NCBI GenBank assembly: GCA_037137755.1
Contig: JBAXJR010000005.1
Coordinates: 1-64,000 of the forward strand
DNA length: 64,000 nt
Origin: Methanomicrobiales archaeon
GTDB taxonomy: Archaea > Halobacteriota > Methanomicrobia > Methanomicrobiales > Methanospirillaceae
Reading direction: 5' to 3'
Shown here: piece after piece, positions 4,438 through 22,401 of the stretch
How the letters are laid out: each line of letters begins with the position of its first letter
How positions within the stretch are numbered: the stretch's first letter is position 1
Position numbers and translations under genes: made by a program
Notes under the pieces: model-generated
Told to the model about the DNA's origin: nothing
Seen by the model: only the letters and a program-made list of their open reading frames with translations
Databases searched by the model: none

Positions 4438-4669
4438 TTGAAACTCGCATGACTCACTGTATCGCCCACAATACCTAGTAGTTACTTATTGGAAAATTTA
4501 AATAAAGGTAACTGTTAAAAAACGGTCGATGCAGATCAAAAACAGAAAATTCTGCACTTTTTTCGAACACGGGTCTTCGGTGTGTAGATGTCCGACTGGA
4601 TAGTTATATCCCTTTCTGGCCGGAACATGGCAGGTCCGGGGGTGCCAGGTCGACCCTCCTAATCTCCCG

Positions 4670-6354: not shown

Positions 6355-6541
6355 CAGGCACCGGTCCTACTGGATTAGTCCCGGTAATAACCCCGGGAAC
6401 TATGAAAGGGGACTTCCTGCTCTGTCTATGTGCTGTCCATTTATTTAATACAAATATTTTTTCGCCCGCTTAAGAGTATTGTCCAGATACCAACCCCCAT
6501 ATAGGATGAGCGGGAAGGATTTCATCGAGGTAATGTGGGAG

Positions 6542-7039
6542 ATGACTGATGCTGCTACAGGGAAAGGGCTTAGGAAAGCGACGTTTGCCGCCGGGTGTTT
6601 CTGGGGTGTGGAAGCCGTATTCCGAAAAATGAAAGGGGTTATATCGACAAGGGTCGGCTACACCGGGGGACAACTGGAAAACCCGACATACCGTGATGTC
6701 TGTACGGGTACGACAGGACATGCCGAGGCCGTGGAGATCAGGTACGATCCGGCGATCGTGTCATTTGGGCAACTGCTTGCCGAGTTCTTCCGGATCCATG
6801 ACCCGACTACCCCTGACCGGCAGGGTCCGGATTATGGGAGTCAGTACCGTTCTGCGATTTTTTACCACGATGATTCACAACGGGAAGCTGCGGAGTCGTC
6901 AATTATTCAGGTGGAGAAGAGTGGCCGCTACCGGCAACCGGTTGTGACCCAGGTAATTCCGGCCCGGGAATTTTTCGAGGCCGAGGAGTATCACCAGCAG
7001 TACTTCGAGAAGAACAAGGGTGCACGGTGTCATATTTAA
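6542..7039 (+). CDS. msrA: Peptide-methionine (S)-S-oxide reductase
   Basis: GCFWG, TGHAE, QYRSAIF and AEEYHQQY motifs; start codon uncertain (6533 or 6542). Confidence 0.95.
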   Translation: MTDAATGKGLRKATFAAGCFWGVEAVFRKMKGVISTRVGYTGGQLENPTYRDVCTGTTGHAEAVEIRYDPAIVSFGQLLAEFFRIHDPTTPDRQGPDYGSQYRSAIFYHDDSQREAAESSIIQVEKSGRYRQPVVTQVIPAREFFEAEEYHQQYFEKNKGARCHI

Positions 7040-7215
7040 TAAGATGAGGTTCTGTTGATCTCCTCACAAAGTTATCTTCTGTAACAGGGTATTTCCAGGT
7101 TAATCCATGTTCCCTGGGCCCATGTCCAAAAGGTCCGGCGTATTTTCGGTAACGATAGAGACTGCTCGCAAATCCCTGAAACCTCATGTGGACCTACCTC
7201 CAAAATATCTTTCCC
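7040..7215 (-). pseudogene. Strongly decayed response-regulator receiver fragment
   Basis: Pieces in three frames read KDILE..HEVSGI / ASS / ENTPDLLDM.PGNMD / NLEIPC / RSTEPHLIK, in the order expected for a REC domain like that of the neighbouring gene. Confidence 0.4.
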
Positions 7216-7472
7216 GGATGAGGCAGGGGGATATTCATTCACCTGTTGTGCCAAATGGCGGCTGATTTGTGGCCGTTTTAAAAATCCACCAACCAGTAAC
7301 CATCATCACAATGATCCCTACCTGAATTATTACAATCTCCGTGTTGTAAAAAACAACGTTTTTTTACGCAGTCTTGTTTTTTCACCCGGGAATTAAAACG
7401 TATCATTCTTTATTTTTTCCCTGGCGAAGTAACAATCAGTAAATAAAATATCGGGTTTACTTCCCTGTCTTA

Positions 7473-8825
7473 TCACCTTTTATCACTACTACTATTCCCG
7501 TCTATTTCACTTCCGGCACCCATGACATGCTGGAAAACAAGTTTGTAGTCATTAAGTTTCTGGCGGATGTGGGTTTTTCCAGTTTCCGTAGGGCAATATA
7601 ATTTGGATTTTCCTGACATCCTGATCTCGAGGTACCCGTTGTCCATCAGATCGTGGAGGAGCGTATAAACCCGTGCCTGCGGAATAAGCACCTTGTACCT
7701 GCTATGGATCTCATGGACGATATCATACCCGGAAATTGGTTTAGACAGAAAAGAAAGTACCACCGGTTCCAGCGACTTTTTTACAACATCATCGATGGTT
7801 GACTGGGGTACAACGGAGACCGATTCGGTAGGGAATGTATGCTGGGCAAACGAAAGCGTCGTTTCTTTCCCGGTTGAAACAATGATCTTGGGAATACCCG
7901 TTGCCAAGGATTTTATCAGGCTATGATCAATTTTTCCGATATTCAGGGCAAAGATCCCGGATATGGGAAAACCCTTCTCCTTTTTTGAAAGAAGTAATTT
8001 TTTGATGGCCAGGATATCATCAAACTCTTCAGTTTCAGAAAAATCGAGAAGTATTTGCAGGGACGTCATCTGGTCTCCGTACAACAGGGATTCCGTGCAC
8101 TTTTCAAGGACCTGCAACAGGGAAAATACTTCGTTTCTTTTTAACCGGTGAGTGAAAAGTTCCTTTTTCCGGATCTCATTTGGAAAGTACTTCTGGAGTG
8201 TCGAATGGAAATAGGCAAAAAGGTTTCGTCCTCCCTTTTTCAAACCCTCTTCCAGTGCAAATTTAAATATCGGTTCTTTCGTGACCTGGTCAGTGTACAG
8301 GAAGAGAACAATATCGGTGAAAATATCTTTTAACAGGACTGTTTTGATTTCCGGCAGATCGAGATAGGCCAGGCCATCAGGGACCGGTTGTCCTCCTCCA
8401 ATCCCATGGAAATCTTTTTCCCATGCTTTTTTTCGCAGCTCCTGTTCTTCCAGCTCTGTTGCCCGCCGGAACAATGCCACTTCAATGGCGGCTTTTATTT
8501 CCAGTTCATTGAAGGGTTTTACAATATAACCGTAAGGCCTGACATGTTTTGCCTTTTCAATGATCGTATCATCCGCGTATGACGTGACAAAAACAACCGG
8601 TATATTCAGTTCCCCGGTAATGATTGTTGCTGCTTCGATGCCATTCATCTTTCCCGGCATCACGATATCCATCAGCACAAGGTCAGGCTGGAGACGCCGG
8701 GCCATGTCAATAGCGTCTTCGCCGGAAGCTGCCATGCCCACAACGGTATATTCCATTATAGTTAACCGTTTTTCCAGCTGCATGGAAATGATCGCTTCAT
8801 CATCAACAACGAGTATTTTCGACAT
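7473..8825 (-). CDS. Response regulator: REC + MEDS/RecA-like central domain + C-terminal PadR-type winged helix
   Basis: REC (VVDDE, LMDIVMP, IVKP); central LFLY..ALEEGLKKG..LFAY segment; PadR-like KPISGYDI..VYTLLHDL..GYL..KLY..TETG. Confidence 0.85.
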   Translation of the reverse strand: MSKILVVDDEAIISMQLEKRLTIMEYTVVGMAASGEDAIDMARRLQPDLVLMDIVMPGKMNGIEAATIITGELNIPVVFVTSYADDTIIEKAKHVRPYGYIVKPFNELEIKAAIEVALFRRATELEEQELRKKAWEKDFHGIGGGQPVPDGLAYLDLPEIKTVLLKDIFTDIVLFLYTDQVTKEPIFKFALEEGLKKGGRNLFAYFHSTLQKYFPNEIRKKELFTHRLKRNEVFSLLQVLEKCTESLLYGDQMTSLQILLDFSETEEFDDILAIKKLLLSKKEKGFPISGIFALNIGKIDHSLIKSLATGIPKIIVSTGKETTLSFAQHTFPTESVSVVPQSTIDDVVKKSLEPVVLSFLSKPISGYDIVHEIHSRYKVLIPQARVYTLLHDLMDNGYLEIRMSGKSKLYCPTETGKTHIRQKLNDYKLVFQHVMGAGSEIDGNSSSDKR

Positions 8826-8829
8826 AAGG

Positions 8830-9879
8830 TTATGGCTCCGTTAGCATCACTGGGAAATCTATAGAGACTTCCGTACCATTCCGGCTCTTAAATAATACTG
8901 AGCCCTTCAACTGGTGCTGCACAATGGTCCTGATCAGCGTGACGCCGAGACTGTTTGAACGGCCGATATCAAAATTTTCCGGTAATCCGATTCCGTTATC
9001 ACGGATGGTTATGTTGATCCGGTCGTTCTCCCGCATTACGGTGATATCAATGGTACCGTTATTCCGCCCTTTGAACGCATGTTTATACGCGTTCGAGAGG
9101 ATTTCATTAATCACCAGTGCGCAGGGCAGGGCCTGGTCTACCGGCAGAAATACTTCCCCCGGGTTAATGGTGCAGCTGATTTCATCCCCTGAATGAGAGA
9201 AAACATTTGATAATGCGGTTACCTGGTCCCTGCACTGGTCTGTTATGTCGATTTTCCCCATCTGTTTACTTTCATAAAGCCGGGTATGGATTTGTGCCAT
9301 GGTCTGTATTTTAAGCATGATATCGGTCAGAATACTGTTTGTCGATTCATCCGGAGAACCCATCCGGGTCATATCCAGCAGGCCGGATATCAGCTGGAGA
9401 TTGTTCTTGACACGGTGGTGGATCTCGCGAAGCAACGTCTCTTTCTCGGAGACCAGTGCCGCAAGAGAGTCGCGATTTTCTATCAGTTCTTTTTCGATCC
9501 TGCCCCGTTCGATAGCATAGCGCAGGGAGCGGGCAATTGACGGCCCGTTCATCTGACCTTTGACAAGATAGTCCTGTGCACCCTCTTTGAGTGCCGTCAG
9601 ACCGGTTTCTTCATTGTCGAGCATGGTCAGAACCACGATCGGTACTGACCCTGCCTGATCCCGCGCCCGGCGTAGCGTGTCGAGTCCCTGGCTGTCGGGA
9701 AGCCCAAGGTCCAGGAGAATAATATCGAATTCCCTCTTCTCAAAGCACGGTTTTGCAGCCGATAACCGGTCTCTCCAGACAATATCAAAAGACGATCCTT
9801 TTTGATCGGACAACATTTCACGTATCAACTCCACATCGGCGGGATTGTCCTCGATCAAAAGAATCGTCACGAGCTGCAC
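8830..9879 (-). CDS. REC-HisKA_2 histidine kinase
   Basis: Receiver LLDLGLPD; H-box EIHHRVKNNLQ; NEILSNAYKHAF; DNGIG; SLG. Confidence 0.92.
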   Translation of the reverse strand: MQLVTILLIEDNPADVELIREMLSDQKGSSFDIVWRDRLSAAKPCFEKREFDIILLDLGLPDSQGLDTLRRARDQAGSVPIVVLTMLDNEETGLTALKEGAQDYLVKGQMNGPSIARSLRYAIERGRIEKELIENRDSLAALVSEKETLLREIHHRVKNNLQLISGLLDMTRMGSPDESTNSILTDIMLKIQTMAQIHTRLYESKQMGKIDITDQCRDQVTALSNVFSHSGDEISCTINPGEVFLPVDQALPCALVINEILSNAYKHAFKGRNNGTIDITVMRENDRINITIRDNGIGLPENFDIGRSNSLGVTLIRTIVQHQLKGSVLFKSRNGTEVSIDFPVMLTEP

Positions 9880-9880
9880 C

Positions 9881-10342
9881 TTACTTTTTCGACGGGAGTG
9901 TTACAACCGAGAACCAGAAGTTCTCAAGCGACCTCACAACCTCAACGAATTCCGTAAATTTTACGGGCTTTTTTATATAGCAGTTCGCATGGAGCCGGTA
10001 TGATTCAAGGATATCCTTGTCGTCCTTTGAGACCGTCATGATGACGACAGGGATATATTTCAGCTCACTATCCGCCTTGATCTCTGCAAGGACTTCACGC
10101 CCATCTTTTTTTGGCATATTAAGGTCGAGCAGGATGATATCCGGTGTCGGGGCCGAGGCGTACCGCCCTTTCTTGCGGAGATAATCCATCGCTTCCACGC
10201 CATCATGCACTACATTCAGGACGTTGCAGAGTTTATTATCCTGAAATGCCTCCTGGGTAAGAGCGACATCTGCAGGATTGTCATCGACCAGCAGGATTTC
10301 GACCGGTCGTAACCACTGTAATATCTTTTCATTTTCATTCAT
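9881..10342 (-). CDS. Stand-alone receiver protein (Rcp1-like)
   Basis: ILLVDDNPADV, PDIILLDLNMPKKDG, ANCYIKKP, FWFSVVTLP; start taken as the ATG after an AAGGAGG-like SD. Confidence 0.92.
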   Translation of the reverse strand: MNENEKILQWLRPVEILLVDDNPADVALTQEAFQDNKLCNVLNVVHDGVEAMDYLRKKGRYASAPTPDIILLDLNMPKKDGREVLAEIKADSELKYIPVVIMTVSKDDKDILESYRLHANCYIKKPVKFTEFVEVVRSLENFWFSVVTLPSKK

Positions 10343-12449
10343 TGTTTGTCTCCTTCCTTCTTTTTGGAATGGTGAAATAAAATGTCGATCCCGAACCGGG
10401 GACCGGCTCGGTCCAGATCGTACCGCCATGTTGTTCTGCTATTCTCTTGCAGATTGCAAGGCCTATCCCTGTTCCGGGGTATTCGTCCCGGGTATGGAGG
10501 CGCTGGAAAATCTTAAAAATCCGTTCCGCATACTGTGGATCGATACCAATGCCGTTGTCAGAAACGGAAAAGATCCAGCTCTTCTCATCCTGTTTTGCCG
10601 ATATATGAATATTCGGAGTAACGCCGGGTTTATGGAATTTGATCGCATTGCCGACCAGGTTCTGGAACATCTTGGTGATCTGTTCCTGGTCTGCGTAAAT
10701 TAAGGGAAGAGGATCGCTTGTAATGACCGCATTGTGTTCTTTGGTGGCAACCTGGAGATCGCTGAGCGCCAGGTCAAGCGATGTATTACTATCAGTCATT
10801 ACATATTCGTGTACCTGCGTCTGGACACGGGAATAGGTTAACAGGTCCTGGATCATCTGCTGCATCCGCAGGGTTCCTTCGGTAATGAAGTCGAGATACT
10901 TGTCCGCCTTTTCGTCGATTTTTCCGTGATAACGTTTTACTAAGAGTTCGGTAAACCCGGATATTGCCCTGAGGGGTTCCTGCAGGTCATGGGAAGCGAC
11001 ATAGGCAAACTGCTGGAGTTCGATGTTGGACCGAGCTAGTTCTGCGGCTTTGAGGACGAGGTCCTCTTCCAGTTTCTTTCGAACAGTAATGTCCCGGATG
11101 TTGCACTGTATGACCTTCTTGTTGTTCACCGTATAGACGTTACTGAGGAACTCAACGGCTATCCGCTTCCCACCTGCGGTTTCGATCGGCATATCTTCGT
11201 ACCGCACGTATTCCTTGCGCTGTAGTTCTTCGAAGTTTTCTTTATTGGCAACGATGTCCTTGAACAGCCCGATCTCCCATATTTTCTTTCCAAGGAACTG
11301 GTCACGTGAGAATCCCAGCATGGTAATTAAAAACGGGTTTACTTCGACGATCTGCCCGGTATCAGCATCGAGAATGAGAATACCGTCCTGTGCTGTCTCA
11401 AAGAGACGACGGTACCGGATTTCTGAAGCCACCTGTGCTTCTTCTGCCAGTTTGCGCTCAGTATTGTTCCGGATGTTGCACTGTATAACCTTCTTATTAT
11501 TCACCATGTAGACGTTACTGAGGAACTCCACGTCAATCCGCCGCCCATCTGCAGTTTCCAGGGGCATATCTTCGTACCTGATATACTCCTGCAGTTTCAA
11601 TTGTTCGAAGTTTTCTTTGTTGGCAACGATGTCCTTGAACAGCCCGATCTCCCATATTTTCTTTCCAAGGAACTGGTCACGTGAGAATCCCAATAGGGCA
11701 ATCAAAAACGGATTTACGTCAGTGATCTGCCCGTCATCAGCATTGAGAATGAGAATGCCGTCCTGTGATGTCTCAAAGAGTCGCCGATACGGGATCTCAG
11801 AAGTAATTTTTGCCTCTTCTGACAGCCGTAAACGCTCCTCACCCGCTCGCAACGCCGTTTCTGCGGCTCTGATATCAGAAATGTCGCTGATTGCCACCCT
11901 GACCTTTACGTTACCATCGCCCGCGCCGGTGAGCCGGATACTCTCCAGCTGGGCAGGGAACGTTGCCCCGTCACCCCGTTTGAGCACCATGGTGGCACTG
12001 AGTCTCTCTTCGGACTGCATAAGATTCATGAAATACCGGTCCCATGTTTCAAGCTCTCCAGGAACGATCCATCTCCTGAACCGTGCATTATTGAGTTGGG
12101 TCCGGTCAACTCCAAGGAGCACCGCAACGGTGAGGTTCGCCCGTGAGATCATTGCCGTATCAGTCAGCGTTAGATAGCCAACCGGGGCGAATTCGTACAG
12201 GTCAAGGTACTCATCCCGTGATTCCGCAAGGGCGAGCTGCACCCTCATGAGCTCCTCAGCCTGTGCTTCAAGCTCGATCTGGTGTACCTGAAGGACATGG
12301 ATAAGTTCCTGAAAATCCTGTATTTTCGCACCGGGATTGACCGTATAGGGACCTTTTGGTTTCTTTTCAGCCGCATCATTCAATGAGATAATGCCGGGTG
12401 AAGCAACAGGTGATTTCTTTTTTTTCGTTTCTTTTGTATTGGCTGCCAT
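10335..12449 (-). CDS. Cytoplasmic PAS histidine kinase (Cph1-like HisKA)
   Basis: N-terminal HQIELEAQAEEL helix, three PAS domains (two near-identical), H-box ASHDLQEPLR, QNLVGNAIKF, FQRLH..GTGIGLA. Confidence 0.95.
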   Translation of the reverse strand: MAANTKETKKKKSPVASPGIISLNDAAEKKPKGPYTVNPGAKIQDFQELIHVLQVHQIELEAQAEELMRVQLALAESRDEYLDLYEFAPVGYLTLTDTAMISRANLTVAVLLGVDRTQLNNARFRRWIVPGELETWDRYFMNLMQSEERLSATMVLKRGDGATFPAQLESIRLTGAGDGNVKVRVAISDISDIRAAETALRAGEERLRLSEEAKITSEIPYRRLFETSQDGILILNADDGQITDVNPFLIALLGFSRDQFLGKKIWEIGLFKDIVANKENFEQLKLQEYIRYEDMPLETADGRRIDVEFLSNVYMVNNKKVIQCNIRNNTERKLAEEAQVASEIRYRRLFETAQDGILILDADTGQIVEVNPFLITMLGFSRDQFLGKKIWEIGLFKDIVANKENFEELQRKEYVRYEDMPIETAGGKRIAVEFLSNVYTVNNKKVIQCNIRDITVRKKLEEDLVLKAAELARSNIELQQFAYVASHDLQEPLRAISGFTELLVKRYHGKIDEKADKYLDFITEGTLRMQQMIQDLLTYSRVQTQVHEYVMTDSNTSLDLALSDLQVATKEHNAVITSDPLPLIYADQEQITKMFQNLVGNAIKFHKPGVTPNIHISAKQDEKSWIFSVSDNGIGIDPQYAERIFKIFQRLHTRDEYPGTGIGLAICKRIAEQHGGTIWTEPVPGSGSTFYFTIPKRRKETNNE

Positions 12450-12981
12450 TTCAGTTTCCCTCCCTGTTGCTGGTGCTTTGGGGGCGAGGCCGGTTATTTC
12501 TCCTTACTACACCAGGAGTTAAAGAAAATAGAGTGTACGTCTGTCCACTATACAGCATTGTTAAGGCGGTTCCTTTTATTATGGCTTTCCAGGAATTCTC
12601 TGGCCCTTTATCGTCTCTCTATTTTAGTTCTGTACAAACATTTCCCCTTTATAGACCGGATTTTACATATTTCCTGTATTTCATGCAGTTGCCGGTTAAT
12701 TTTTTGGGAGCATGGTTCTTATACAGAGGAGAATGTTATAAATTACCTGATAAGGGTTCTCCCAGTTTATAAATTTTGCAACGTTGGACCGGACATTAAA
12801 TCCTTGCAGATACGGTGAACTATTACAAAAAATTACCCGGTTACGTTTTTTTTACGATACTCAAGGAATTGTTAAAAGCCGGGTTGCGAAACCTGAATGG
12901 CATTTGTATATCTCGTGTTTAGTGTTATGGAACGGGTGTGTTCCAGCAAATTAAGACCGGAAATTTCGGATTTTAATTCAT

Positions 12982-13010
12982 ATTTTGCAACACCCGGGTA
13001 GTGGTATATA
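12982..13010 (+). promoter_or_regulatory. Shared promoter motif, copy 1 (ATTTTGCAA-CACC-CGGGTAGTGGTATATA)
   Basis: Matches copies at 17181, 18434 and 20195; ends in a TATA-like box about 100 bp before ATG 13113. Confidence 0.7.
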
Positions 13011-13112
13011 CTCACCCACTCCATGGTGTTTGTCTCTGATAAGATTATAAAAATCATATTATAAATAATAAAATATTTTTAAAGATCGTGTCAGGGAAAG
13101 GGAGTTTTTAAC

Positions 13113-13502
13113 ATGAAAGAAATAATCAAAGACGCACCAGGGAAGGTGCAGGTAACTGTATTAAATGAGACACCAGACCGGATGGTAAACACCGGAATTG
13201 CTGGTGCAGATCATCTGAAAATCCAGACTGCCGAAGCACTGGAAGATGCTGCCCGTAAGCTACGGATGTCTGATGTATCAGCCAGGGATGAGGACGTACA
13301 ACGAATCCTGCAGAATGTCGAAGACCGGGTAAACCAGTTCAAGGCAGATATTGGTACACAGTACCAGAACGTGGAAGCAGGGTATCATAAGACAGTAGAA
13401 CCGGTAGAAAACCTTATCATCGATCATCCAATTCCTTCTGTTCTGGTCGCAGCCGGTCTCGGTGTCATCCTGGGCATGTTCATATTCAAACCACGTGACT
13501 AA
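13113..13502 (+). CDS. DUF883/YqjD/ElaB-like tail-anchored membrane protein
   Basis: Charged helical body plus C-terminal HPIPSVLVAAGLGVILG transmembrane motif typical of DUF883_C. Confidence 0.75.
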   Translation: MKEIIKDAPGKVQVTVLNETPDRMVNTGIAGADHLKIQTAEALEDAARKLRMSDVSARDEDVQRILQNVEDRVNQFKADIGTQYQNVEAGYHKTVEPVENLIIDHPIPSVLVAAGLGVILGMFIFKPRD

Positions 13503-13513
13503 CGAGGGATTGT

Positions 13514-13882
13514 ATGCAAACCAGTGCCGGGATTGAAGAACAGACGATAGAATCAGAGTTAGCCAGGACAGTTAAATACATAGACCTCTACATGCAGCAG
13601 AAGATGGATCTGTTTCTGCAGCACTATGTATTTGAACCGGTAAACTTTCTGATCCGGCAGATCATGTACCTGTCGATCGTTGTTACCTTGCTGGTAGCTG
13701 GAATCGTCGTCCTGTTGATTGGTGTGATCCTTTACCTGGCAACGTTTGTCCCGCTCTGGACAGCACTGTTCATCACAGGTGCCATATTATTGGGAATGGG
13801 CGTAATTTCCTCCTACATACTCATATCAATGAAAATCGTCCTGAAAACCCCGATTGCCACGGAGGCGGTACTACATGAATAA
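13514..13882 (+). CDS. Two-TM membrane protein (YqjE / holin-superfamily-III-like)
   Basis: Two long hydrophobic helices with a PLW turn; position after the DUF883 gene mirrors yqjD-yqjE. Confidence 0.6.
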   Translation: MQTSAGIEEQTIESELARTVKYIDLYMQQKMDLFLQHYVFEPVNFLIRQIMYLSIVVTLLVAGIVVLLIGVILYLATFVPLWTALFITGAILLGMGVISSYILISMKIVLKTPIATEAVLHE

Positions 13883-14264
13883 ACGTAGGCAGGTCACTGA
13901 AGAAGACCTCCTCATCACGGAAGCGTTGATTTCGCAATCTTATAGTCAACTGAAACAGTCAGTCATCCAGGCTCCATCCAGGATGTACCAGTCAATAAGC
14001 CAGACTGCACGTGAGCACCCCTATGAAACTGCCGCTGCAGGTGTTGTTGCAGGGGTAGCCGTGGGTGGGATCATCAAAATGAAGTCATCTGGTGCCTCTG
14101 TACCGAGAGCACATGAACGAGTCAGGGTCACCATAGAGAAGGACACGAGCCGCCAGGATCTCATGCGTGAGATGCTGCCGATCATCATACCGCTTGTTGC
14201 CCCGTATCTCGAAGGCTTTATCCAGAAATATATTGGCGGGATCCCATCCGTGGAACGCGTATAA
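13875..14264 (+). CDS. Hypothetical protein with internal DUF883-like motif (YqjK-like position)
   Basis: GGAGG SD; 8-bp overlap with the upstream gene; EHPYETAAAGVVAGVAVG segment. Confidence 0.6.
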   Translation: MNKRRQVTEEDLLITEALISQSYSQLKQSVIQAPSRMYQSISQTAREHPYETAAAGVVAGVAVGGIIKMKSSGASVPRAHERVRVTIEKDTSRQDLMREMLPIIIPLVAPYLEGFIQKYIGGIPSVERV

Positions 14265-14559
14265 CGCGTAATCTTTCTGGTAGGAAATTGTATTTTATTT
14301 TTATACGCGGGACCTTGCTCCTTGCTTTCTCCAGCCGGACAGAGGGCTTGCGCAGAATAAAAATTTCTGCGTCTTCACCCTTGCACGTATCGCGTAGGGG
14401 AAATTACCCGCTATTTGTTGAATCGCGCGATGTATCTCCCAGTTCTGGTCGTCCGGTATTCGCAGACACAAATCATATGTAATTATATATCTCTTAATCT
14501 CCTCAACCCGATAGATGCTGTTGTATGAGCTGCAACAACACTGCAGCCCGGGAGAAATT

Positions 14560-15306
14560 ATGGCAAACAAAAGTCCATTAATTATCGTCCTGGCGGTATT
14601 TACACTCCTTCTGTTCGCAGGGGGAAATGTAATGGCCCAGACGATCACCATCAATGGTGATGTATCGCAGGAGGACTCGCTCGTATGGACAATCTCGAGC
14701 GACGCGTTAGACGGAGTACTCGTTCCAGGCGAAGTCCAGGCCACGACTACCTACGGTGAAAACACACACTCAACGGGTGGCAGCACGAGTTACATCAAGA
14801 ATTTCAACCTGAACACAGGAAATGTAGTTCTCGGCCAGAATAATGTCGACGTCCAAAAAATCATCACATTCGATGGTACCACCGCTCCGAACGGGAACGG
14901 TCGCATAGTTTCAGAAGAGTCAATCGGTATTGACACGATGGGCCTGCCTGGCAGTTCATCGACATGGCCAGCATTCCACAGCAATATTCAGGCCGGGGGC
15001 TCGTTCGATCTCCTGCGGGGTTCAGTCGCAACAGCAGCACAATCCCGCACCGTATCGGCAGATCCAAACACCCCTGTGAGCCTCAATTACTATATCAACC
15101 TGCATGGGACACCGACCCGCACAGGGGCATACCTGCCTGCAATCGGTTCAGTCAACTCGTTCATGAATGCTCACGGCGAGTATGCAAGGGGTAACAGCAC
15201 ACAGAAGTCATCTGACCTGGTCTACTCACACAGTTCCGGGGCAAGTGGCCTGATAACTTCCTTCACGGACAGCATAAAATATCAGTCAGGATTAACCCTG
15301 TTCTGA
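14560..15306 (+). CDS. Secreted beta-rich protein, Methanospirillum major sheath protein (MspA/SH)-like paralogue
   Basis: Signal peptide; Ser/Thr/Gly-rich; collinear with the 20820-21641 product (GEV..TT.Y.ENT, Y.K.F.L.TGN, QAG, K.SDL, YQSG end); family link is from recall. Confidence 0.6.
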   Translation: MANKSPLIIVLAVFTLLLFAGGNVMAQTITINGDVSQEDSLVWTISSDALDGVLVPGEVQATTTYGENTHSTGGSTSYIKNFNLNTGNVVLGQNNVDVQKIITFDGTTAPNGNGRIVSEESIGIDTMGLPGSSSTWPAFHSNIQAGGSFDLLRGSVATAAQSRTVSADPNTPVSLNYYINLHGTPTRTGAYLPAIGSVNSFMNAHGEYARGNSTQKSSDLVYSHSSGASGLITSFTDSIKYQSGLTLF

Positions 15307-15456
15307 TAACCAAAGAAGAATATTCCAATAATTTCTTTTTACGCCCTTTAACAAAAGAGATCTCATTTCCGATCAGGTGAATTCCTGGCTGCCAAACTCC
15401 TTTGTGGGAATATATGGTTTATTCCTGACAGAAAAAAGAAGATCCTGATCCCTGTA

Positions 15457-15975
15457 TCAGCTCGCTGCAGCGTCCAGCCCCTTTTTCAGGGCGGGCAAAA
15501 GCCCCACGGAAATGTTCACTTCGCTGGCAATATTTTTAGTCAGGCTCTGTTGCCGGGTCCGCTCTGCCGAAGTTAGTTCCCGTACATCCCCCAGCCGTTG
15601 AATCTCGAAGATCCGGTCCCGTTCCCGCTCCGCGATAAGAAGGTGATTGTAAAACGTTACGGTATCCTTTGCAATATTCCGGTCCATTTTAGGGATGTCC
15701 CGCTGGTAGGCGAAATACAGGCCATTGTCCGGATAGATCGGGGCGGCCTGGACAAAGATGTACTTATCATCGGGGTTCGCCACGAATCCCTGGTCTATTG
15801 ATATAAGATAGTCCTCCATCGTTGAAACATCGAGATAGAGTCCCTCGGCAGTGTCGCTCCGATCCTTGGCCAACGACGAGTTCCAGAGGAAAAGCGAGTT
15901 GGCAAGGTAACCGCTCGCACCGATAAGGACCCCGATGACGAGAATGATAATCTGGGTCTTAGTGTTTTCTTCCAT
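15457..15975 (-). CDS. Hypothetical protein with N-terminal membrane anchor
   Basis: 172-aa ORF with one N-terminal hydrophobic helix. Confidence 0.75.
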   Translation of the reverse strand: MEENTKTQIIILVIGVLIGASGYLANSLFLWNSSLAKDRSDTAEGLYLDVSTMEDYLISIDQGFVANPDDKYIFVQAAPIYPDNGLYFAYQRDIPKMDRNIAKDTVTFYNHLLIAERERDRIFEIQRLGDVRELTSAERTRQQSLTKNIASEVNISVGLLPALKKGLDAAAS

Positions 15976-16193
15976 GTGATTCACGTGCTTTGTTGTCCTT
16001 TCGGGGAACCTGATGTTTTGTCAAATAAAGGGAGGATTTCCCGGTGCCTCCAGGGTTACGATGCAGGGGTTTAGCAGGCTTATTCGAATCCCGCCTGTCG
16101 TCATAATTCTCCAGTTCGTGAGTTTTCCCAAGACTGAATAATAATCGATCGGGCAGTTGTCATACCGGATGGTTGTTTTCGTTATATGGTAAC

Positions 16194-16829
16194 TCACATT
16201 GGCCGGGCGTCTATCTCGCGTGGAATAAGTTTCTGTAGAAGCATATCCGGTATCTGCTTCGAGGTATGTACAGCCATATCGAAGTAAGCCTGGTTATCAC
16301 GGTCACCTTTATAGGTAAGGTCTATCTTGAAGATGGTATCCGTCAACCTGATTGATCCGAGTGAATTGACGGTTGCACGTCGCTCAGCAATTGTTCTGGT
16401 CTGCCCGTTAATGAGTTTTTGGCGGTCACCATCAATATCCGTGATGAGTTCACCCTGGTACGAGAGCACACTGACGTGAGAGTTCCCTATAGCTATTGCC
16501 TGGCCTTCGGGGAATGTAACGCTGTACATAGTAGTGTAGGGTAATACGTTCCCTGGCGTTACGTCCGTAACTGAAACAGACAGCGTCATGTAAGCCACAA
16601 CGACAACAAGGAGTGCAATGACAATGAGGGCGATTACGATGGTTAAACCCATGCCGGTCCCACCCTTTTTCTGTTCGCGTCCACGTTCCTCCTCCAGGCC
16701 CTTTTTCCGTCCTTTTTCCTGTTCCCGTTCGCGTTCCCGCTGTTCGTCCTGCTCTTTTTTCTTTCCTTGTTCCTGGGCAAGTTTCCGTTCCCGGGCCTGC
16801 TCATCATCCTGTGTTGATATATCAGTCAT
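16194..16829 (-). CDS. Hypothetical single-pass membrane protein with highly charged N-terminus
   Basis: E/R/K/Q-rich first 55 aa, one TM helix, beta-rich C-terminal domain; GGAG SD. Confidence 0.8.
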   Translation of the reverse strand: MTDISTQDDEQARERKLAQEQGKKKEQDEQREREREQEKGRKKGLEEERGREQKKGGTGMGLTIVIALIVIALLVVVVAYMTLSVSVTDVTPGNVLPYTTMYSVTFPEGQAIAIGNSHVSVLSYQGELITDIDGDRQKLINGQTRTIAERRATVNSLGSIRLTDTIFKIDLTYKGDRDNQAYFDMAVHTSKQIPDMLLQKLIPREIDARPM

Positions 16830-17180
16830 TTCATCTCTCCATATTTTTATGAATTATTTTCATCATTCTCGTAAATGCAGTTCATTGTTTATCAGATGTC
16901 ATTTTTTATCCAGAGGCATTATCCCGTGATGTCACCTGTGCCAACTGGCCACACGAGAACTGACCTTCATATAGGGCGGATGCATGTATACCTAACCCGA
17001 TATTCCAAAATTTGGAACTACGATGTTATCTTTATGAACTTTTCGTGCAGGTTGATTAAAGAAGGAAACGGGGTTTAAATCGGAAAATCCGGAATGAAAT
17101 GCAATCTTTCCCATGTCCTTTTTACAGGCTTTGAAGATTTTTTTTATTCTTCCCAATGACCTGAATTCCGGATGACTCAT

Positions 17181-17208
17181 ATTTTGCAACAACGGGTCAG
17201 GTATATAT
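17181..17208 (+). promoter_or_regulatory. Shared promoter motif, copy 2 (ATTTTGCAA-CAA-CGGGTCAGGTATATAT)
   Basis: Near-identical to the copy at 18434. Confidence 0.7.
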
Positions 17209-17243
17209 CGTCCCATGCGACATGGAGGCATAGAACTGGATCC

Positions 17244-17368
17244 GGATGAGCGATCATGACTGAAAAAATCCAGGTCGCTCATCCACGGGCTAACGTTTCG
17301 AATATGGAATACAATCGAGACATGGAGGGATTAATTATGAGATTGGCCTCATATCTTCCATGTTTCGA
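17244..17368 (+). other. Two-hairpin structured 5' leader or small RNA
   Basis: Stem GGATGAGCGAT(17244-54)/GTCGCTCATCC(17274-84); stem TCGAGACATGGAGG(17315-28)/CTTCCATGTTTCGA(17355-68) with inner TATGAG/CTCATA. Confidence 0.5.
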
Positions 17369-17393
17369 AATGTTACATGCAGAGGAAACAGGT

Positions 17394-18371
17394 ATGTTAA
17401 AATTATTAAAATTGTATGCAGTTATGGCGCTTCTTGGTACATTAGTCTTAGTGCTCCCGGCAAGTGGGGCTCTTTTTACGATCCCCCGGGGGGGCACAGC
17501 CTTCATAGGTGAACAGGGCCTTGATATCACCCAGACCGGGACAACAAGCAGCACGATGATCGGCTGGTTTGGGAACGGGAATAATGGTACGTACGGGGTA
17601 CCGGTAGCAACAACGTCCGTAGGTGATGCTAAAAATTTCTATATTGCACCTTCGGTTTTTAGTGGTAAAACCGGACCATGGTATAACCTTTCCAGTAAAG
17701 AGCTAGCATTTTACGTGGAAGATCCAAGCCTGACTATTAGGATTTTCGATGAGACTTCGAATTTTGAACTGACGGGTGCGAACATGTATGTGCCGAAAGG
17801 AGACCAGGTGGGTTACAGGGTTGATACCAACCTCGTTCCCATCGCGAACAGGCCCGGTATTACAATGTTTCCCATAACAATTCACGTCAGGACGCCCAAC
17901 GGAAACGAGCTTGCAGAGGTATCCAATTACCCGCTGAAAGATATCATGATCAGCTCATCACCATTTTCGACAGGCCCTGTATGGGATACAAGCACGTATG
18001 CCTCAGGCACCTACACGGTCTGGGCAGTTTGTAATGTAAATAGTATGAAGGATAATTACCCTGTTGATGGTAAGACCGAGACCCCTCAGACGGCCAATGT
18101 CCAGATTAGTAGTTCAAACCCACTCATCATATCATCGGTTACACCTACCCTGACAAGCGTGTTCAGTACGCCTCGACCCAGCCCGGTTGCAACAACAGAG
18201 ATGAAAACGGGTCCTGTAACAGAAATCAGGACCACGGTACCTCCGACGGCGGCCCTTACCTCTTCCCCGGCAAGCCTGCCTCCTGCAACCACCAAGGCCC
18301 CGGGACCGGATGTTGTCTTCATTATAGGTGTATTAGGGTTAGCCACTCTCGTTATGTGGGGACGGGATTAA
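17394..18371 (+). CDS. DUF3821 cell-surface protein with Thr/Pro linker and PGF-CTERM-like tail
   Basis: Signal peptide, GGTAFIGEQGLDIT motif, GTYTVWA.CNVN.MKDNY, T/P-rich linker, KAPG + TM + charged end. Confidence 0.8.
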   Translation: MLKLLKLYAVMALLGTLVLVLPASGALFTIPRGGTAFIGEQGLDITQTGTTSSTMIGWFGNGNNGTYGVPVATTSVGDAKNFYIAPSVFSGKTGPWYNLSSKELAFYVEDPSLTIRIFDETSNFELTGANMYVPKGDQVGYRVDTNLVPIANRPGITMFPITIHVRTPNGNELAEVSNYPLKDIMISSSPFSTGPVWDTSTYASGTYTVWAVCNVNSMKDNYPVDGKTETPQTANVQISSSNPLIISSVTPTLTSVFSTPRPSPVATTEMKTGPVTEIRTTVPPTAALTSSPASLPPATTKAPGPDVVFIIGVLGLATLVMWGRD

Positions 18372-18433
18372 CGCGGATAATATACATAAATATGGCCTAT
18401 TCCCACCAGAATTCTTTTTAAGGTTTGATCCAA

Positions 18434-18461
18434 ATTTTGCAACAGCGGGTCAGGTATATAT
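18434..18461 (+). promoter_or_regulatory. Shared promoter motif, copy 3 (ATTTTGCAA-CAG-CGGGTCAGGTATATAT)
   Basis: About 100 bp before ATG 18560; the downstream leader also resembles copies 1 and 4. Confidence 0.75.
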
Positions 18462-18559
18462 GGAACACTGCTATATTGTGATTATCTCTGGTAAGTTTAT
18501 ATAAAATATATTATAAAATGTATTTTTTAAAATACTGTCAGAGCAGGAGACAGAAAATA

Positions 18560-18913
18560 ATGACTAACACTGTAACATCAGAAACTGCAAAAGCCACCGG
18601 AGATGCCCGGGTTGCTGCACAAACCGCATATGACAATTCAAAGGTCCCCCACACCACACACAGCGATGTGGCCAAATCCATCCACCAGGTGAAAGATGCA
18701 GGGGTACAGGCCCACAAAGTATCAGACGACGCAAAATACGAGGCCCAGAAAGGCGCCCATGACGAAGTAAAGGTTACTGTTGCTACCCCGCACAAGGATG
18801 CAGACCTTACCTCTCATGCTCCATCACATAACCCAAAGAGCGATGTCCAAAAAGCTGCTCCTGGTGTTAAAGTCGGGGCAACCGATGTCGTACCGGCAAT
18901 GAATAAGAAATAA
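18560..18913 (+). CDS. Small hydrophilic LEA-like protein (diverged paralogue of 20318)
   Basis: AGGAG SD; A/K/D/H/V-rich with no Trp, Cys or Phe; N-terminus aligns with the 20318 product (KA..DA.VAA..AYD..KV). Confidence 0.7.
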   Translation: MTNTVTSETAKATGDARVAAQTAYDNSKVPHTTHSDVAKSIHQVKDAGVQAHKVSDDAKYEAQKGAHDEVKVTVATPHKDADLTSHAPSHNPKSDVQKAAPGVKVGATDVVPAMNKK

Positions 18914-18927
18914 TCGTGATGTAAAGA

Positions 18928-19104
18928 ATGACGGGTTTAATCTTGATCACGGTAATTTTTCTTGTCTATCTGCTATGGTTTTTCTATATCAGTGGTACAG
19001 GTAAAAGCCCGCTTCTCAATGGAACCTGCTCTATGACCCGGAGTCCTCCCCGGTATAAAAGTCATAATTACGTTCATATTGTAGCAGAATCCCTGGGAAA
19101 TTAA
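18928..19104 (+). pseudogene. Degenerate DUF1328 copy
   Basis: First ~75 nt align with 20550-20620 (LILITVIFLV..FFYI.G vs [15 protein letters not shown]); the second TM is lost. Confidence 0.55.
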
Positions 19105-19195
19105 AAAGCAGACGATAGGATCCTGGTGATGCAACGCATGAAAAGCCTGCATCTACCGTTAAACCCGTTTTTCCATTCGGACTAAAAACAGTACT

Positions 19196-19708
19196 ATGAC
19201 AAAAGAGATTTTACAATCGGAAATACAGTCTCCTATAGATAATGAAATGACTGAAATATCTCAAAGAATTATGATGGAACTTGAATCCGCAAGTTCTAAG
19301 GATTTGTCAGAAGCCAAATATGCAAAAAAGATATTGCAGTTATCAGATCTTAATTATACGAAAAATATATTCCACGAGATAGAGTGTGTTCCGTCCGGAG
19401 ATGAGCGCGTCATCGAAAAACGGGCGGTAATAAAGGCATTGTTGCTTTCTATGTGGTTGCAGAGACTTTATTTTATTATCAGGTCCGCTCTTATGTCGGT
19501 TCTGGCAGCGGTCGTCACATTCATTTACGTATCGTTTTTTGGCCAGATAGGCGTGGCTCTGGCACTTGCCATGGGCATGCTTATATTCATAATCGGGTTG
19601 ATTGTAACAAGATTATTTGATAAACAAACCGTCAGAGTAACAAAATATATCGTTATACGAATGGCCGACCATAAAAAGATCAGGGAATTTATTATGAATC
19701 ACCTCTAG
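19196..19708 (+). CDS. Hypothetical membrane protein (two C-terminal TM helices)
   Basis: 170-aa AT-rich ORF with a hydrophobic hairpin. Confidence 0.75.
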   Translation: MTKEILQSEIQSPIDNEMTEISQRIMMELESASSKDLSEAKYAKKILQLSDLNYTKNIFHEIECVPSGDERVIEKRAVIKALLLSMWLQRLYFIIRSALMSVLAAVVTFIYVSFFGQIGVALALAMGMLIFIIGLIVTRLFDKQTVRVTKYIVIRMADHKKIREFIMNHL

Positions 19709-19779
19709 GTAAACAGAAGGCCTGTAATTTCATCACATTTCCGACAGATCAATTATTTGCTCTTGATTTATCCGGGCGG

Positions 19780-20085
19780 GTAAGATGACGAAAGTTTCGC
19801 CAATACAATCTATTCGTTTATCATTGTCCAGATTTCCGCAGCCCTCATTGCATTCCTCCTCTACCTGATGTTTTATTATTTTCCGGGTGTAAATGATCCA
19901 CTCCTGCTCGAAACCCTGATTGGTGCTGCCATATGATCCTGTTCATCGGTGCCCGACTGGTAAAAACAGGTTGTGGTTGCGATTCACTTGGTCATGATGA
20001 TGATCGGCATCTTTGCCGGTGTCCAGTTTGGGCATTGCAGGTTTCATCATTGGCCTGATGCGTGTTGCGCTCGCAGTAACCGGAT
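19780..20085 (+). pseudogene. Fragment of AI-2E (PerM/UPF0118) family transporter
   Basis: ANTIYSFIIVQISAALIAFLL.. then stop and frameshifts, then IHLVMMMIGIFAGV.FG / IAGFIIGL..VALAVT, matching the IHP..G..GG...G..GF..GP C-terminal motif. Confidence 0.55.
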
Positions 20086-20194
20086 AAAAGAGGGGACGCA
20101 GTATCAGGTGCGATTTCGTGTGGATCCGTTAGACCGTGTTATGTACCAATGGTTGTTCCCGGACTAATAACCGGTAATAAAGGTTTTAAATCAA

Positions 20195-20226
20195 ATTTTG
20201 CAATACCGGGTCAGGTGTATATACTC
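20195..20226 (+). promoter_or_regulatory. Shared promoter motif, copy 4 (ATTTTGCAA-TAC-CGGGTCAGGTGTATATACTC)
   Basis: About 95 bp before ATG 20318. Confidence 0.75.
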
Positions 20227-20317
20227 CGATACTATATGTTGCTTATCTCTGGTAAAAATTAAAATTCTATGAAATATCCCATTGAAATTCATATCAGGGA
20301 AAGGAGTTGGAAATATC

Positions 20318-20530
20318 ATGACTGACAATTTAAAAGTAGAAGCCTACAAGGCCATAGATAACGCCAATGTTGCTGCACATGCAGCATATGATGATGCAAA
20401 GGTCGCTACGCATAACGTACTCAAAGATGCAGAAAGTGCATCGGATGATGCAAAAATCGGCGTTCATAAGGTAGTTTCTGATGCAAAAATCGCGGCCCAT
20501 GAAGCCGGATCAGAATTGAAGAAGAAATAA
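20318..20530 (+). CDS. Small LEA-like protein with 11-mer repeats
   Basis: AAGGAG SD; KVEAYKAIDNA-NVAAHAAYDDA-KVATHNVLKDA-(ESASDDA)-KIGVHKVVSDA-KIAAHEAGSEL. Confidence 0.8.
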   Translation: MTDNLKVEAYKAIDNANVAAHAAYDDAKVATHNVLKDAESASDDAKIGVHKVVSDAKIAAHEAGSELKKK

Positions 20531-20549: not shown

Positions 20550-20711
20550 ATGGATTTAATCTGGCTCGCGGTAGTATTCCTTATACTGGCACTCGTGTTC
20601 TACATTCTTGGTGCAAGAGGGATCGCCGGGTTCAGCATGGAAATAGCGAAGATCCTTGTAATTATCTTCATAATAATCGCGGTTATAACCTTCCTGTTTG
20701 GCCGCCTCTGA
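20550..20711 (+). CDS. DUF1328 / UPF0391 small membrane protein (missing from the ORF track)
   Basis: GGAGGTGA SD; [53 protein letters not shown], 53 aa. Confidence 0.9.
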
Positions 20712-20730
20712 ACCTTTTTAAAAAGGTTCA
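20709..20730. terminator. Perfect 22-bp palindrome between convergent genes
   Basis: TGAACCTTTTTAAAAAGGTTCA gives a T5 run on both strands. Confidence 0.5.
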
Positions 20731-20819
20731 CTTGTGCAACCTAAAAACAACAGATAAAAAACAAGAGGGTTTTTTCCCACGCTATTGGGGGAACTGGAAC
20801 TCCTTCCTGTTTTTTACTT

Positions 20820-21641
20820 TCACAGTAACCTTGCCCCTGACTGGTAGGTCATAGCCTTGGTGAATGACTTTATGTACCCGTTTGCTGTGGATTTTTCTTC
20901 ACTAGAGAGATCAGACGCCTTCGTCAGGCTGCTGCCACTTCCACCCTGCAGATGCAGTTTCATGTACGCCTGGACAAGTCCGTAAGCCGGAATAGTCCCG
21001 CTTGCGGTATTAACCCCGTGAGCATTCATGCTGTAAGCTAATGCGACCGGTATGTCCTGGGATGCCACGACCGTCCGGCTGGATGCCTGCGACGAGAGAG
21101 AGATTATGTTGCTGTCCACGTGGCTTCCCGCCTGCGCAATGTTACAGTATGCAGGAAGTGTGCTTATGCTGGACGCCCCGAACGGACAGAGGAACTGTCC
21201 TGCAGCTGATGTTGGCATGCCGACGGTATCGATAAGCAGGCTCTCATCAGAGACCATGTTTCCACCGTTGAGACCCTCAAAGGTTATCTGACGGTTTGAT
21301 TCAACATTACTCTGTGAGACGGCCTTGTTCCCGGTATCGAGAGCGAAGTCCTTCACATACACGGTGTGCCCGTTCATCGCATTGGTATTTTCGGAGTATA
21401 CCGTGGTCTGGACTACTTCCCCGTCGGATAACGGGGGGTTGTCCTGCATTGAGCCGCTGCTGGAAGTCCATGCAACGTCTGCTACGTTACTCGCGGACCC
21501 GATGACATCGATATAGGTCGTCGTTCTGATACCCTGGATTTCGGGTGTCTGGTTCACGCCATCTGCCGATACACTGATGCTGAGCGTTGTAAGCACCAGG
21601 ACGACAGACAGAATACAAAGTATTCTTTTTCCGATTTTCAT
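20820..21641 (-). CDS. Secreted beta-rich protein, major sheath protein (MspA/SH)-like
   Basis: AGGAGG SD, signal peptide, DGVNQTPEIQG start, NPPL..GE, LDTGNK, FLCPF..LPAYCNI, F.K.M.YQSG.R end, as recalled for the Methanospirillum sheath family. Confidence 0.65.
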   Translation of the reverse strand: MKIGKRILCILSVVLVLTTLSISVSADGVNQTPEIQGIRTTTYIDVIGSASNVADVAWTSSSGSMQDNPPLSDGEVVQTTVYSENTNAMNGHTVYVKDFALDTGNKAVSQSNVESNRQITFEGLNGGNMVSDESLLIDTVGMPTSAAGQFLCPFGASSISTLPAYCNIAQAGSHVDSNIISLSSQASSRTVVASQDIPVALAYSMNAHGVNTASGTIPAYGLVQAYMKLHLQGGSGSSLTKASDLSSEEKSTANGYIKSFTKAMTYQSGARLL

Positions 21642-22116: not shown

Positions 22117-22401
22117 TCAGGTCCCGGCACAGGTCCGCCTGTTTGTTCCAGGACGGTTCAGGCAGTCAGGTTTCTTCTCTCCCCGTTTTGCACCGTCCGG
22201 GTCATCCTTGCGGTACCTGACCTGTCGTGCATCTTCAAAATTCCATTCTTCCGCGATAAGGCGGTTCTCCCGTAATTTCTGGATGGCATACCTGACCGTG
22301 CGGGGAGACAGCCCGGTCAGCGAGATAATCTCCTTGTTCGTGAAGGCCTTGCCTGCACTGAGCAGCGAGAGCACTATCCATGAGGAAGGTGGCAGTTTCA
22401 T
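22117..22401 (-). CDS. Small winged-helix transcriptional regulator
   Basis: LPPSS..VL..L, TGLSPRTVRYAIQKL helix-turn-helix, DARQ..Y wing. Confidence 0.85.
   Translation of the reverse strand: MKLPPSSWIVLSLLSAGKAFTNKEIISLTGLSPRTVRYAIQKLRENRLIAEEWNFEDARQVRYRKDDPDGAKRGEKKPDCLNRPGTNRRTCAGT

Follow-up and report, generated by a model that had tools for sequence, protein, structure and literature searches.

A conserved promoter module of Methanoregulaceae joins a candidate regulator-binding dyad to a shared core promoter and leader

A stretch of 64,000 nucleotides from a Methanomicrobiales archaeon (assembly GCA_037137755.1, contig JBAXJR010000005.1, positions 1 to 64,000; hereafter the window) carries several copies of a promoter cassette of about 130 nt, composed, in order, of an imperfect 21-bp dyad, a GTATATAC box, a −10 ATG block, a putative start site and a leader. 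Judged from its conservation in sequence, this module is a real, family-wide cis-regulatory element of the Methanoregulaceae. We consider it fairly probable that the dyad is a regulator-binding upstream site, probably an activator site, set on a shared core promoter of stress-type genes that have a conserved leader. We infer both the sign of regulation and the identity of the bound factor, for which the best candidate is a receiver–PadR protein encoded in the same window.

An earlier note on this DNA had quoted four strings on the plus strand, at 12982, 17181, 18434 and 20195, and all four are present in the window sequence. Their frequency is far from that of background: the composite TTTTGCAAYA-N2-3-GGGT has 4 matches against 0.01 expected, and none of 100 shuffles reached 4. 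The 10-mer ATTTTGCAAC by itself is weak (10 matches with at most one mismatch against 4.43 expected; 10 was reached in 2 of 100 shuffles), and genome-wide the pattern TTGCAA-N8-14-GGTRTATA is found at these four sites only. Scored with R1, a sequence-only profile built from 11 aligned sites of this genome and three relatives, the plus-strand modules lie at 12944–13030 (copy 1; dyad at about 12973–12993, TTTTGCAA at 12983–12990, TATA at 13005–13011 and −10 block at about 13020–13028; 66.2 bits, E = 1e-19), 17147–17229 (copy 2; TTTTGCAA at 17182–17189, TATA at 17202–17208; 62.8 bits), 18398–18483 (copy 3; TTTTGCAA at 18435–18442, TATA at 18455–18461; 58.4 bits) and 20161–20244 (copy 4; TTTTGCAA at 20196–20203, TATATAC at 20218–20224; 64.6 bits). 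A profile search of the window with filters off also yielded an additional full copy on the minus strand (16963–17024; 35.9 bits, E = 2.7e-10), divergent from copy 2 and with a TTTTGGAA variant at 17010..17003; this copy was absent from the R1 training set, and its syntenic copy in a same-genus genome also scores. Two further copies were found elsewhere in the genome, on contigs C2 (97893–97979, minus strand) and C12 (37076–37157, plus strand). The fifth ATTTTGCAAC that had been listed at 12773 proved to be a fragment only, covering 23 of 90 model positions (7.8 bits, E = 0.17): this partial site (12763–12782, plus strand) has the upstream block, no TATA at the fixed distance and no counterpart in three related loci compared. 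Because ATTTTGCAA is common (52 occurrences in the 2.64-Mb draft genome), a chance hit is plausible, and we rejected the site as a full copy in favour of a partial or chance match.

The module recurs widely within the family. R1 matched 40 of 151 family genomes (E ≤ 0.01), spread over 12 of 19 genera with 1–11 copies each, and an order-wide sample (E ≤ 0.001) gave matches in 12 of the 48 family genomes included, compared with 2 of 102 from the other five families. A search with a single protein led to relatives with public names, Methanoregula sp. and Methanoregulaceae metagenome-assembled genomes (MAGs), in which the same module precedes genes for repeat proteins, DUF883_C-like proteins, zinc-ribbon proteins, an oxidoreductase and Lys/Glu-rich proteins. 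The exact pattern TTTTGCAA-N12-16-TATATA occurs in 36 of 201 genomes of the order; its matches outside the family were discarded as strings unlike the module, and one strict-pattern match outside the family, which lies among long open frames, is probably intragenic. Nine lake-water or freshwater metagenome runs carry 0.80–1.00 of the sampled words of the window, and three of these may be its own source. A search of full-text literature returned nothing on this motif or on receiver–PadR regulators, and no description of Methanoregulaceae promoters or regulons.

The geometry of the module was read from 62 distinct sites, of which five were dropped (E > 1e-4 or more than one mismatch in TTTTGCAA) and 57 kept. 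These gave the consensus ...TTGATTCA(A/G)ATTTTGCAACAAC.GGTAAGAGGTATATACT(T/C)CCACGCTC.ATG.AGG.TATCTCTG(G/A)TAT..., in which information content is high over three parts: the positions from about −10 to +19 relative to TTTTGCAA, the TATA box, and the A-T within the −10 block. TATATAC lies 22 bp from the start of TTTTGCAA in 47 of the 57 sites; the other ten, including window copies 2 and 3, mostly have TATATAT, in which the box can be placed two bases either way. The earlier note had singled out the palindrome TTGCAA about one helical turn upstream of TATA. Its dyad symmetry stands, but TTGCAA is not the true unit: of 116 centres scored over an 85-nt stretch (mean 2.71 of 10, standard deviation 0.65), the first T of TTTTGCAA is the most symmetric at 5.88, with TTGCAA second at 5.26. 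Because the strongest centre is this first T, TTGCAA is the right arm of a larger, imperfect 21-bp dyad, TTGATTCAAA-T-TTTGCAACAA, whose consensus halves agree at 8 of 10 positions and whose length matches the roughly 20-bp dyad expected of a PadR-family operator. The distance had also been misjudged, since TTGCAA lies 14 bp from TATA edge to edge and 21 bp centre to centre, that is, two turns. Across the 57 sites the dyad ends about 12 bp before the TATA box and is thus placed upstream of the TFB-recognition element (BRE) and TATA at a fixed distance. A further CCGGAAATTCCGG-like dyad upstream is clear in some sites; we did not count it as part of the core module because its strict form occurs in only 6 of the 57. 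An impression by eye that the TATA flanks form varying inverted repeats was also rejected: covariation around the box gave no pairing excess over column composition (3.68 observed against 3.84 expected).

The position of the start is indicated by a same-genus orthologue in which the module directly precedes the gene. Its ATG, fixed by homology to MTDNLKVK..., occupies the position of TTA|TCTCTG in other copies, 20 nt after the TATA 8-mer, so that the transcript must be leaderless or nearly so; this also agrees with GTATATAC being the TATA box, centred near −25. By analogy of sequence, transcription in the other copies would start at the purine in TTA|TCTCTG, just before TCTCTG. Numbered from this putative start, the dyad covers about −60 to −40, the palindromic GTATATAC TATA about −29 to −22, and the A-T-G block lies at about −10. 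A bacterial sigma-70 look-alike (TTGCAA-N16-TATACT), considered by eye, was rejected because the host is an archaeon with TBP and TFB and because the start read from the leaderless orthologue lies some 12 nt beyond the one that such a promoter would give.

Ordinary promoters of the same genome provide a comparison. Its 38 tRNA genes share promoters with a BRE/TATA of AACC-TTTWTA type about 30–35 nt before the mature 5′ end, and an A-T-rich word about 15–20 nt after TATA is visible in several of them, which would make the −10 block possibly a feature of promoters in general. The module differs in its TATA flank (GG-TATATAC), a purine/G-rich stretch preceding the box where the tRNA promoters have AACC. 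This difference could be taken to mean that the module marks promoters of an alternative basal factor, either a second TFB or a second TBP, the former having been one suggestion of the earlier note. The genome does have two TBP genes, at 77719–78240 of contig C1 and at 67835–68353 (minus strand) of C5, the contig that holds the motif cluster, about 3.8 kb past the window end. TBP number does not track the motif, however: among ten genomes compared, it is 2–3 in five that bear the motif and 1–4 in five that do not. A search for TFIIB repeats found two, and hence a single TFB gene, both here and in almost every family genome, motif-bearing genomes and complete genomes with several copies of the module among them; the alternative-TFB reading is therefore not supported. 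A basal-factor signature would also leave unexplained why the dyad, 20 bp upstream, can be missing from a promoter whose core is retained, and we consider this explanation very unlikely.

Such an absence shows up in sequence comparison. In two genomes of another genus, both 99% complete, there is no motif match and no candidate regulator. TATA box, −10 block, start region and leader stem are retained at each of the three repeat-protein promoters of these genomes, and the TTGATTCAAATTTTGCAAC (dyad) block is absent from all three. By this comparison the dyad is separable from the core promoter. The same observation, together with the fixed distance from TATA, the dyad symmetry and the conservation across genera, partly bears out the activator-site reading of the earlier note: these are features expected of a transcription-factor site upstream of BRE/TATA, and activation is its probable effect. 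A dimeric transcription factor would bind the 21-bp dyad just upstream of the region contacted by TFB and TBP, and would recruit or stabilize these, leading to co-induction of the regulon. The dyad might instead be the operator of a repressor or dual regulator, with a constitutively competent core and a regulon held off until a signal arrives. The core promoter before orthologues in dyad-less genomes is the same and so probably sufficient, and the conserved block between TATA and start could be a second operator. Yet that block may belong to promoters in general, given the A-T word in several tRNA promoters, and the dyad lies wholly upstream of TATA/BRE. Archaeal regulators such as TrmBL1, SurR, Ptr2 and TFB-RF1 activate from sites upstream of BRE/TATA and repress from sites over or after TATA. 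We therefore regard repression as unlikely, although it deserves more weight than the basal-factor explanation.

Downstream of the start, the leader (median length 76.5 nt) is conserved as well, and the blocks that copies 1, 3 and 4 had been said to share are present in the sequence. At its 5′ end, CUCUGRUAU has a complement in AUAUCAGRG, after which comes AAAGGAG (Shine–Dalgarno). The 5′ block is present in 29 leaders 40 nt or longer, and in 22 of these the minimum free energy (MFE) fold pairs it with a segment at most 15 nt before the Shine–Dalgarno-like word, which stays unpaired. In copy 1 (13032..13112, plus strand), 5′ CUCUGAUAA is predicted to pair with GUGUCAGGG just before a GGGAG Shine–Dalgarno, across an AU-rich loop, with an MFE of −16 kcal/mol that none of 200 shuffles equalled; the leader of copy 3 (18484–18559, plus strand) was equalled by 4 of 200 shuffles, and the same stem from 5′ end to pre-Shine–Dalgarno segment is predicted for copy 4 (20245–20317, plus strand). 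Short-leader variants retain a mini-hairpin. The leader of copy 2 is different, having a strong local hairpin (GGATGAGCGATC...GGTCGCTCATCC; 17220–17280, plus strand; −32.9 kcal/mol for the whole leader) and no CUCUG/AU-rich leader. The stem is thus a reasonable prediction from the conserved complementary blocks, and a role of the leader in mRNA protection or translation control is a guess. All six leaders examined in this way leave the Shine–Dalgarno free in their MFE structures, unlike an RNA thermometer that masks this site.

With some 130 conserved nt and complementary blocks, the cassette is reminiscent of a structured RNA, and the block could conceivably be part of a transcribed RNA element, or of a mobile cassette, rather than a promoter. 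However, a comparison with Rfam gave no credible match to the leader or module, only two at chance level (E = 0.74 and 0.88) at a threshold of E ≤ 1, and the pairing test around TATA given above found no excess. The module always faces a gene at a set distance, the start codon of one orthologue stands 20 nt after TATA, and terminal repeats or target duplications were not seen in the printed flanks, for which no formal test was made. We find this explanation scarcely credible.

The candidate factor for the dyad is encoded about 4 kb upstream of copy 1. P0008 (450 amino acids; 7473..8825, minus strand) consists of a receiver (Response_reg, 85.4 bits), about 240 uncharacterized residues and a C-terminal PadR winged helix (31.1 bits), both domains scoring above their cut-offs. 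PadR proteins are a winged-helix family that binds dyads as dimers. Three signalling genes lie upstream of it in the same direction: a REC–HisKA_2–HATPase kinase (8830–9879; HisKA_2 73.6 bits against a cut-off of 22.3), a lone receiver (9881–10429) and a PAS–HisKA–HATPase kinase (10335–12449), all assigned by Pfam and on the minus strand. In the mechanism proposed here, P0008 would be the dyad-binding factor, fed by the adjacent HisKA_2-type kinase. Eight other loci with the regulator were examined (L126–L133), and in every one a HisKA_2 kinase gene directly precedes the regulator gene on the same strand. Regulator orthologues are present in 55 of 151 family genomes, and 26 genomes have both motif and regulator, 14 the motif only, 29 the regulator only and 82 neither (odds ratio 5.3; Fisher P = 2e-5 with kinship ignored). 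All 14 genomes with at least three motif matches have the regulator, and in 10 genomes of six genera it lies 1–20 kb from a motif site. The 707 regulator homologues found carry automatic names only. From these sequence comparisons, no stronger candidate than P0008 has emerged, but its assignment is no more than a good lead.

Genes of a few kinds recur behind the module. An open reading frame (ORF) starts 44–400 nt downstream in 60 of the 62 sites, and sorting by sequence pattern assigned 21 of these to small repeat proteins, with 13 zinc-ribbon proteins whose N terminus is similar, 4 DUF883_C-like proteins (and one more placed under 'other'), 3 DUF3821 proteins and 19 others, among them an LTD protein, a chagasin-type inhibitor and an oxidoreductase of the pyridine-nucleotide-disulphide type. 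Copy 1 precedes an operon (13113..14264, plus strand) of three small membrane proteins: P0001 (13113–13502), tail-anchored and DUF883_C-like (DUF883_C 14.1 bits, below the cut-off of 27); P0003 (13514–13882), Holin-X/YqjE-like (Phage_holin_3_6 24 bits, below the cut-off of 28.4); and P0007 (13854–14264; DUF883_C 14.4 bits, below the cut-off). This trio is also found behind the motif in a genome of the same genus. Behind copy 2 is a gene for a DUF3821 surface protein with a signal peptide and a C-terminal anchor (17256..18371, plus strand; PF12863 165.6 bits against a cut-off of 23), which probably starts at 17337 or 17394. The minus-strand module precedes an ORF for a Lys/Glu-rich protein of 211 amino acids with one membrane helix (16829..16194, minus strand), which has no Pfam family above cut-off and whose homologues lie behind motif sites in named MAGs (loci L100 and L103) and at locus L132. 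Copy 3 is followed by P0004 (18560–18913, plus strand), a hydrophilic 117-amino-acid paralogue of the small repeat proteins, and copy 4 by P0005 (20318–20530, plus strand), 70 amino acids made of 11-residue repeats that mostly end in His, and then by a DUF1328 (YtjA) membrane protein (20550–20711, plus strand; 45.8 bits, above the cut-off of 27). The 11-residue periodicity of the small repeat proteins was read from their consensus. A language-model search placed the small proteins near LEA_4, YtxH, KIN2 and DUF883 clusters at 0.84–0.86, which are weak leads only.

This gene set bears on whether the similarity of the sites reflects nothing but shared ancestry, the promoter and leader having been copied with duplicating genes and no regulation in common. 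Most sites do precede paralogous small proteins, and the earlier guess that duplication contributed to copies 3 and 4 was sound, in that the proteins downstream are paralogues (42% identity, alignment A2); their leader is also shared with non-paralogous genes. Against this, the module is kept across genera before unrelated genes, as had been suggested from two copies in the window, and precedes mutually dissimilar proteins (DUF883_C-like, DUF3821, the oxidoreductase, the chagasin-type inhibitor and the 211-amino-acid protein). Its fixed spacing has been maintained across 12 genera while the flanks diverged, and only one of the four DUF3821 paralogues in the genome has the module upstream. Common descent without common regulation is therefore highly improbable. 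By analogy, we infer a 'stress regulon' role for the gene set.

Several observations weigh against an activator site served by P0008 on stress-type genes. The regulator was not found (E ≤ 1e-10) in 14 of the 40 motif-bearing genomes, which have 1–2 matches each; five of these, four of them 94–98% complete and one 83%, were rechecked and were still without it at E ≤ 0.01. Conversely, 29 genomes have the regulator and no motif match, and one such genome has an ordinary AACC-TTAATTA promoter on its repeat-protein gene. At the genus level the association is weak (8 with both, 4 with the motif only, 1 with the regulator only and 6 with neither; P = 0.057), and the loci L126–L133 were selected for holding both motif and regulator, so that only the kinase–regulator adjacency is independent there. 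The presence of the same core promoter before orthologues in dyad-less genomes means that the dyad is dispensable for having a promoter and could act with either sign. The sole RNA library with this DNA (metatranscriptome X15, 0.09 of the sampled words) yields five contigs of 173–229 nt (13499–13674, 13970–14149, 15118–15290, 18091–18319 and 20578–20780) that lie inside genes, none of them over a promoter, and show no differences; transcript ends cannot be read from contigs, and DNA may be present in the library. The basis of the leader stem is a pair of conserved complementary blocks, the fold z-scores of six leaders are mixed (−3.28 for copy 1, −2.17 for copy 3, +0.15 for copy 4, and −2.03, −2.69 and −0.38), and leader covariation was not significant in two duplex-energy tests of a leader's own 3′ region against that of another site (392 and 1,048 of 5,000 permutations as good). 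The small repeat proteins match no Pfam or NCBIfam family, LEA_4 and LEA included. DUF883_C is the top or near-top match in four of four proteins, yet at 14.1–23.5 bits against a cut-off of 27, so that 'DUF883_C-like' is a description only. Finally, the stress role is drawn from analogy only.

Other features of the cluster and its surroundings are recorded here. The second family behind the motif (C2, 97401–97799, minus strand, and 12 related loci) combines a repeat-protein-like N terminus with a conserved acidic PH(D/N)(R/M)(D/E)S-like stretch and a CPxCG zinc ribbon, for which Pfam gave only sub-threshold zinc-ribbon matches. At the C12 copy (locus L047), the DUF1328 gene is readable only with a frame change and the preceding repeat protein is cut to 50 amino acids, possibly a decaying paralogue or an assembly error. 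Two paralogous secreted proteins without a Pfam family lie within the cluster, of 263 (14515–15306, plus strand) and 273 amino acids (20820–21641, minus strand); the former is syntenic in the same-genus genome, and neither has the motif upstream. The minus strand from 154 to 12449 is a dense two-component run, including a 1,427-amino-acid protein that opens with receiver-like sequence (154–4437); between these signalling genes are an ABC transporter-like pair (4670–6354) and a probable MsrA-like gene (6479–7039), labelled by eye. Just past the cluster, a 94-amino-acid winged-helix ORF (HTH_24/MarR_2-like; 22117–22401, minus strand) overlaps an ORF on the opposite strand.

The proposed site resembles known upstream activating sites of archaeal activators—Ptr2 of Methanocaldococcus jannaschii, TFB-RF1 of Pyrococcus furiosus and EarA at the Methanococcus fla genes—in lying directly upstream of BRE/TATA, at a fixed distance and before several genes. 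It differs from them in sequence, in the likely protein family (receiver–PadR rather than Lrp-like or another helix–turn–helix type) and in being fused to a conserved core promoter and 5′ leader. FilR1 of Methanothrix harundinacea and LtrR of Methanococcoides burtonii are archaeal two-component regulators with DNA-binding outputs; like P0008, they join a receiver to a helix–turn–helix output in a methanogen, beside a kinase. Unlike them, P0008 has a PadR output and a long middle region without assignment, and a candidate site and regulon can be proposed for it from sequence. The leader resembles the ompA-type 5′-terminal stem-loops that stabilize bacterial mRNAs, in that the first transcript bases are predicted to be paired and the ribosome-binding site free, but here the partner strand would lie directly before the Shine–Dalgarno, about 60 nt away across an AU-rich loop, and the support is conserved complementarity.

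A bacterial parallel is the PhyK–PhyR–NepR–EcfG system, the general stress response of Alphaproteobacteria. PhyR is the best-scoring model for the receiver of P0008, as PhyK is for the neighbouring kinase, and the placement of an HWE/HisKA_2-type kinase beside the regulator, a PhyK trait, is also found here. These matches involve single domains and are far below the family cut-offs (92.6 against 240 bits, receiver only, and 117.6 against 750 bits). Archaea have no sigma factors, and the output of P0008 is a DNA-binding PadR domain, with no anti-anti-sigma (sigma-like) domain as in PhyR. The targets recall the sigma-S small-protein set of enterobacteria, in which YqjD and ElaB are sigma-S targets, in that they include DUF1328 and DUF883_C-like tail-anchored proteins. 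The likeness to PhyK/PhyR would thus lie in wiring and gene set; family membership is not established. Taken together, these points suggest a tentative scheme of a general-stress-type regulon in archaeal form, possible rather than probable, in which a PhyK/PhyR-like phosphorelay ends in a receiver–PadR regulator that binds the dyad and activates 5–10 promoters per genome. Their products would be membrane-anchored proteins and hydrophilic repeat proteins, comparable to those that sigma-S or EcfG controls in bacteria, with the paired leader giving mRNA longevity or a second, post-transcriptional control.

To our knowledge, archaeal response regulators with DNA-binding outputs have rarely been tied to targets. 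The module offers a testable regulatory code, in which a candidate binding site and a promoter of fixed geometry come with a list of targets and with a named candidate regulator and its kinase, and binding of the module by the regulator would link a whole two-component pathway to its regulon. If the scheme is true, it would add to the very small number of two-component systems in archaea whose binding site and regulon are defined, and would represent stress wiring that is convergent or transferred between domains. The cassette could also serve as an inducible promoter part in methanogen genetics. Methanoregulaceae are major methane producers in lakes, peat and wetlands and are mostly known from metagenomes; the gene set behind the module suggests how such strict anaerobes may survive stress in oxic or drying freshwater habitats.

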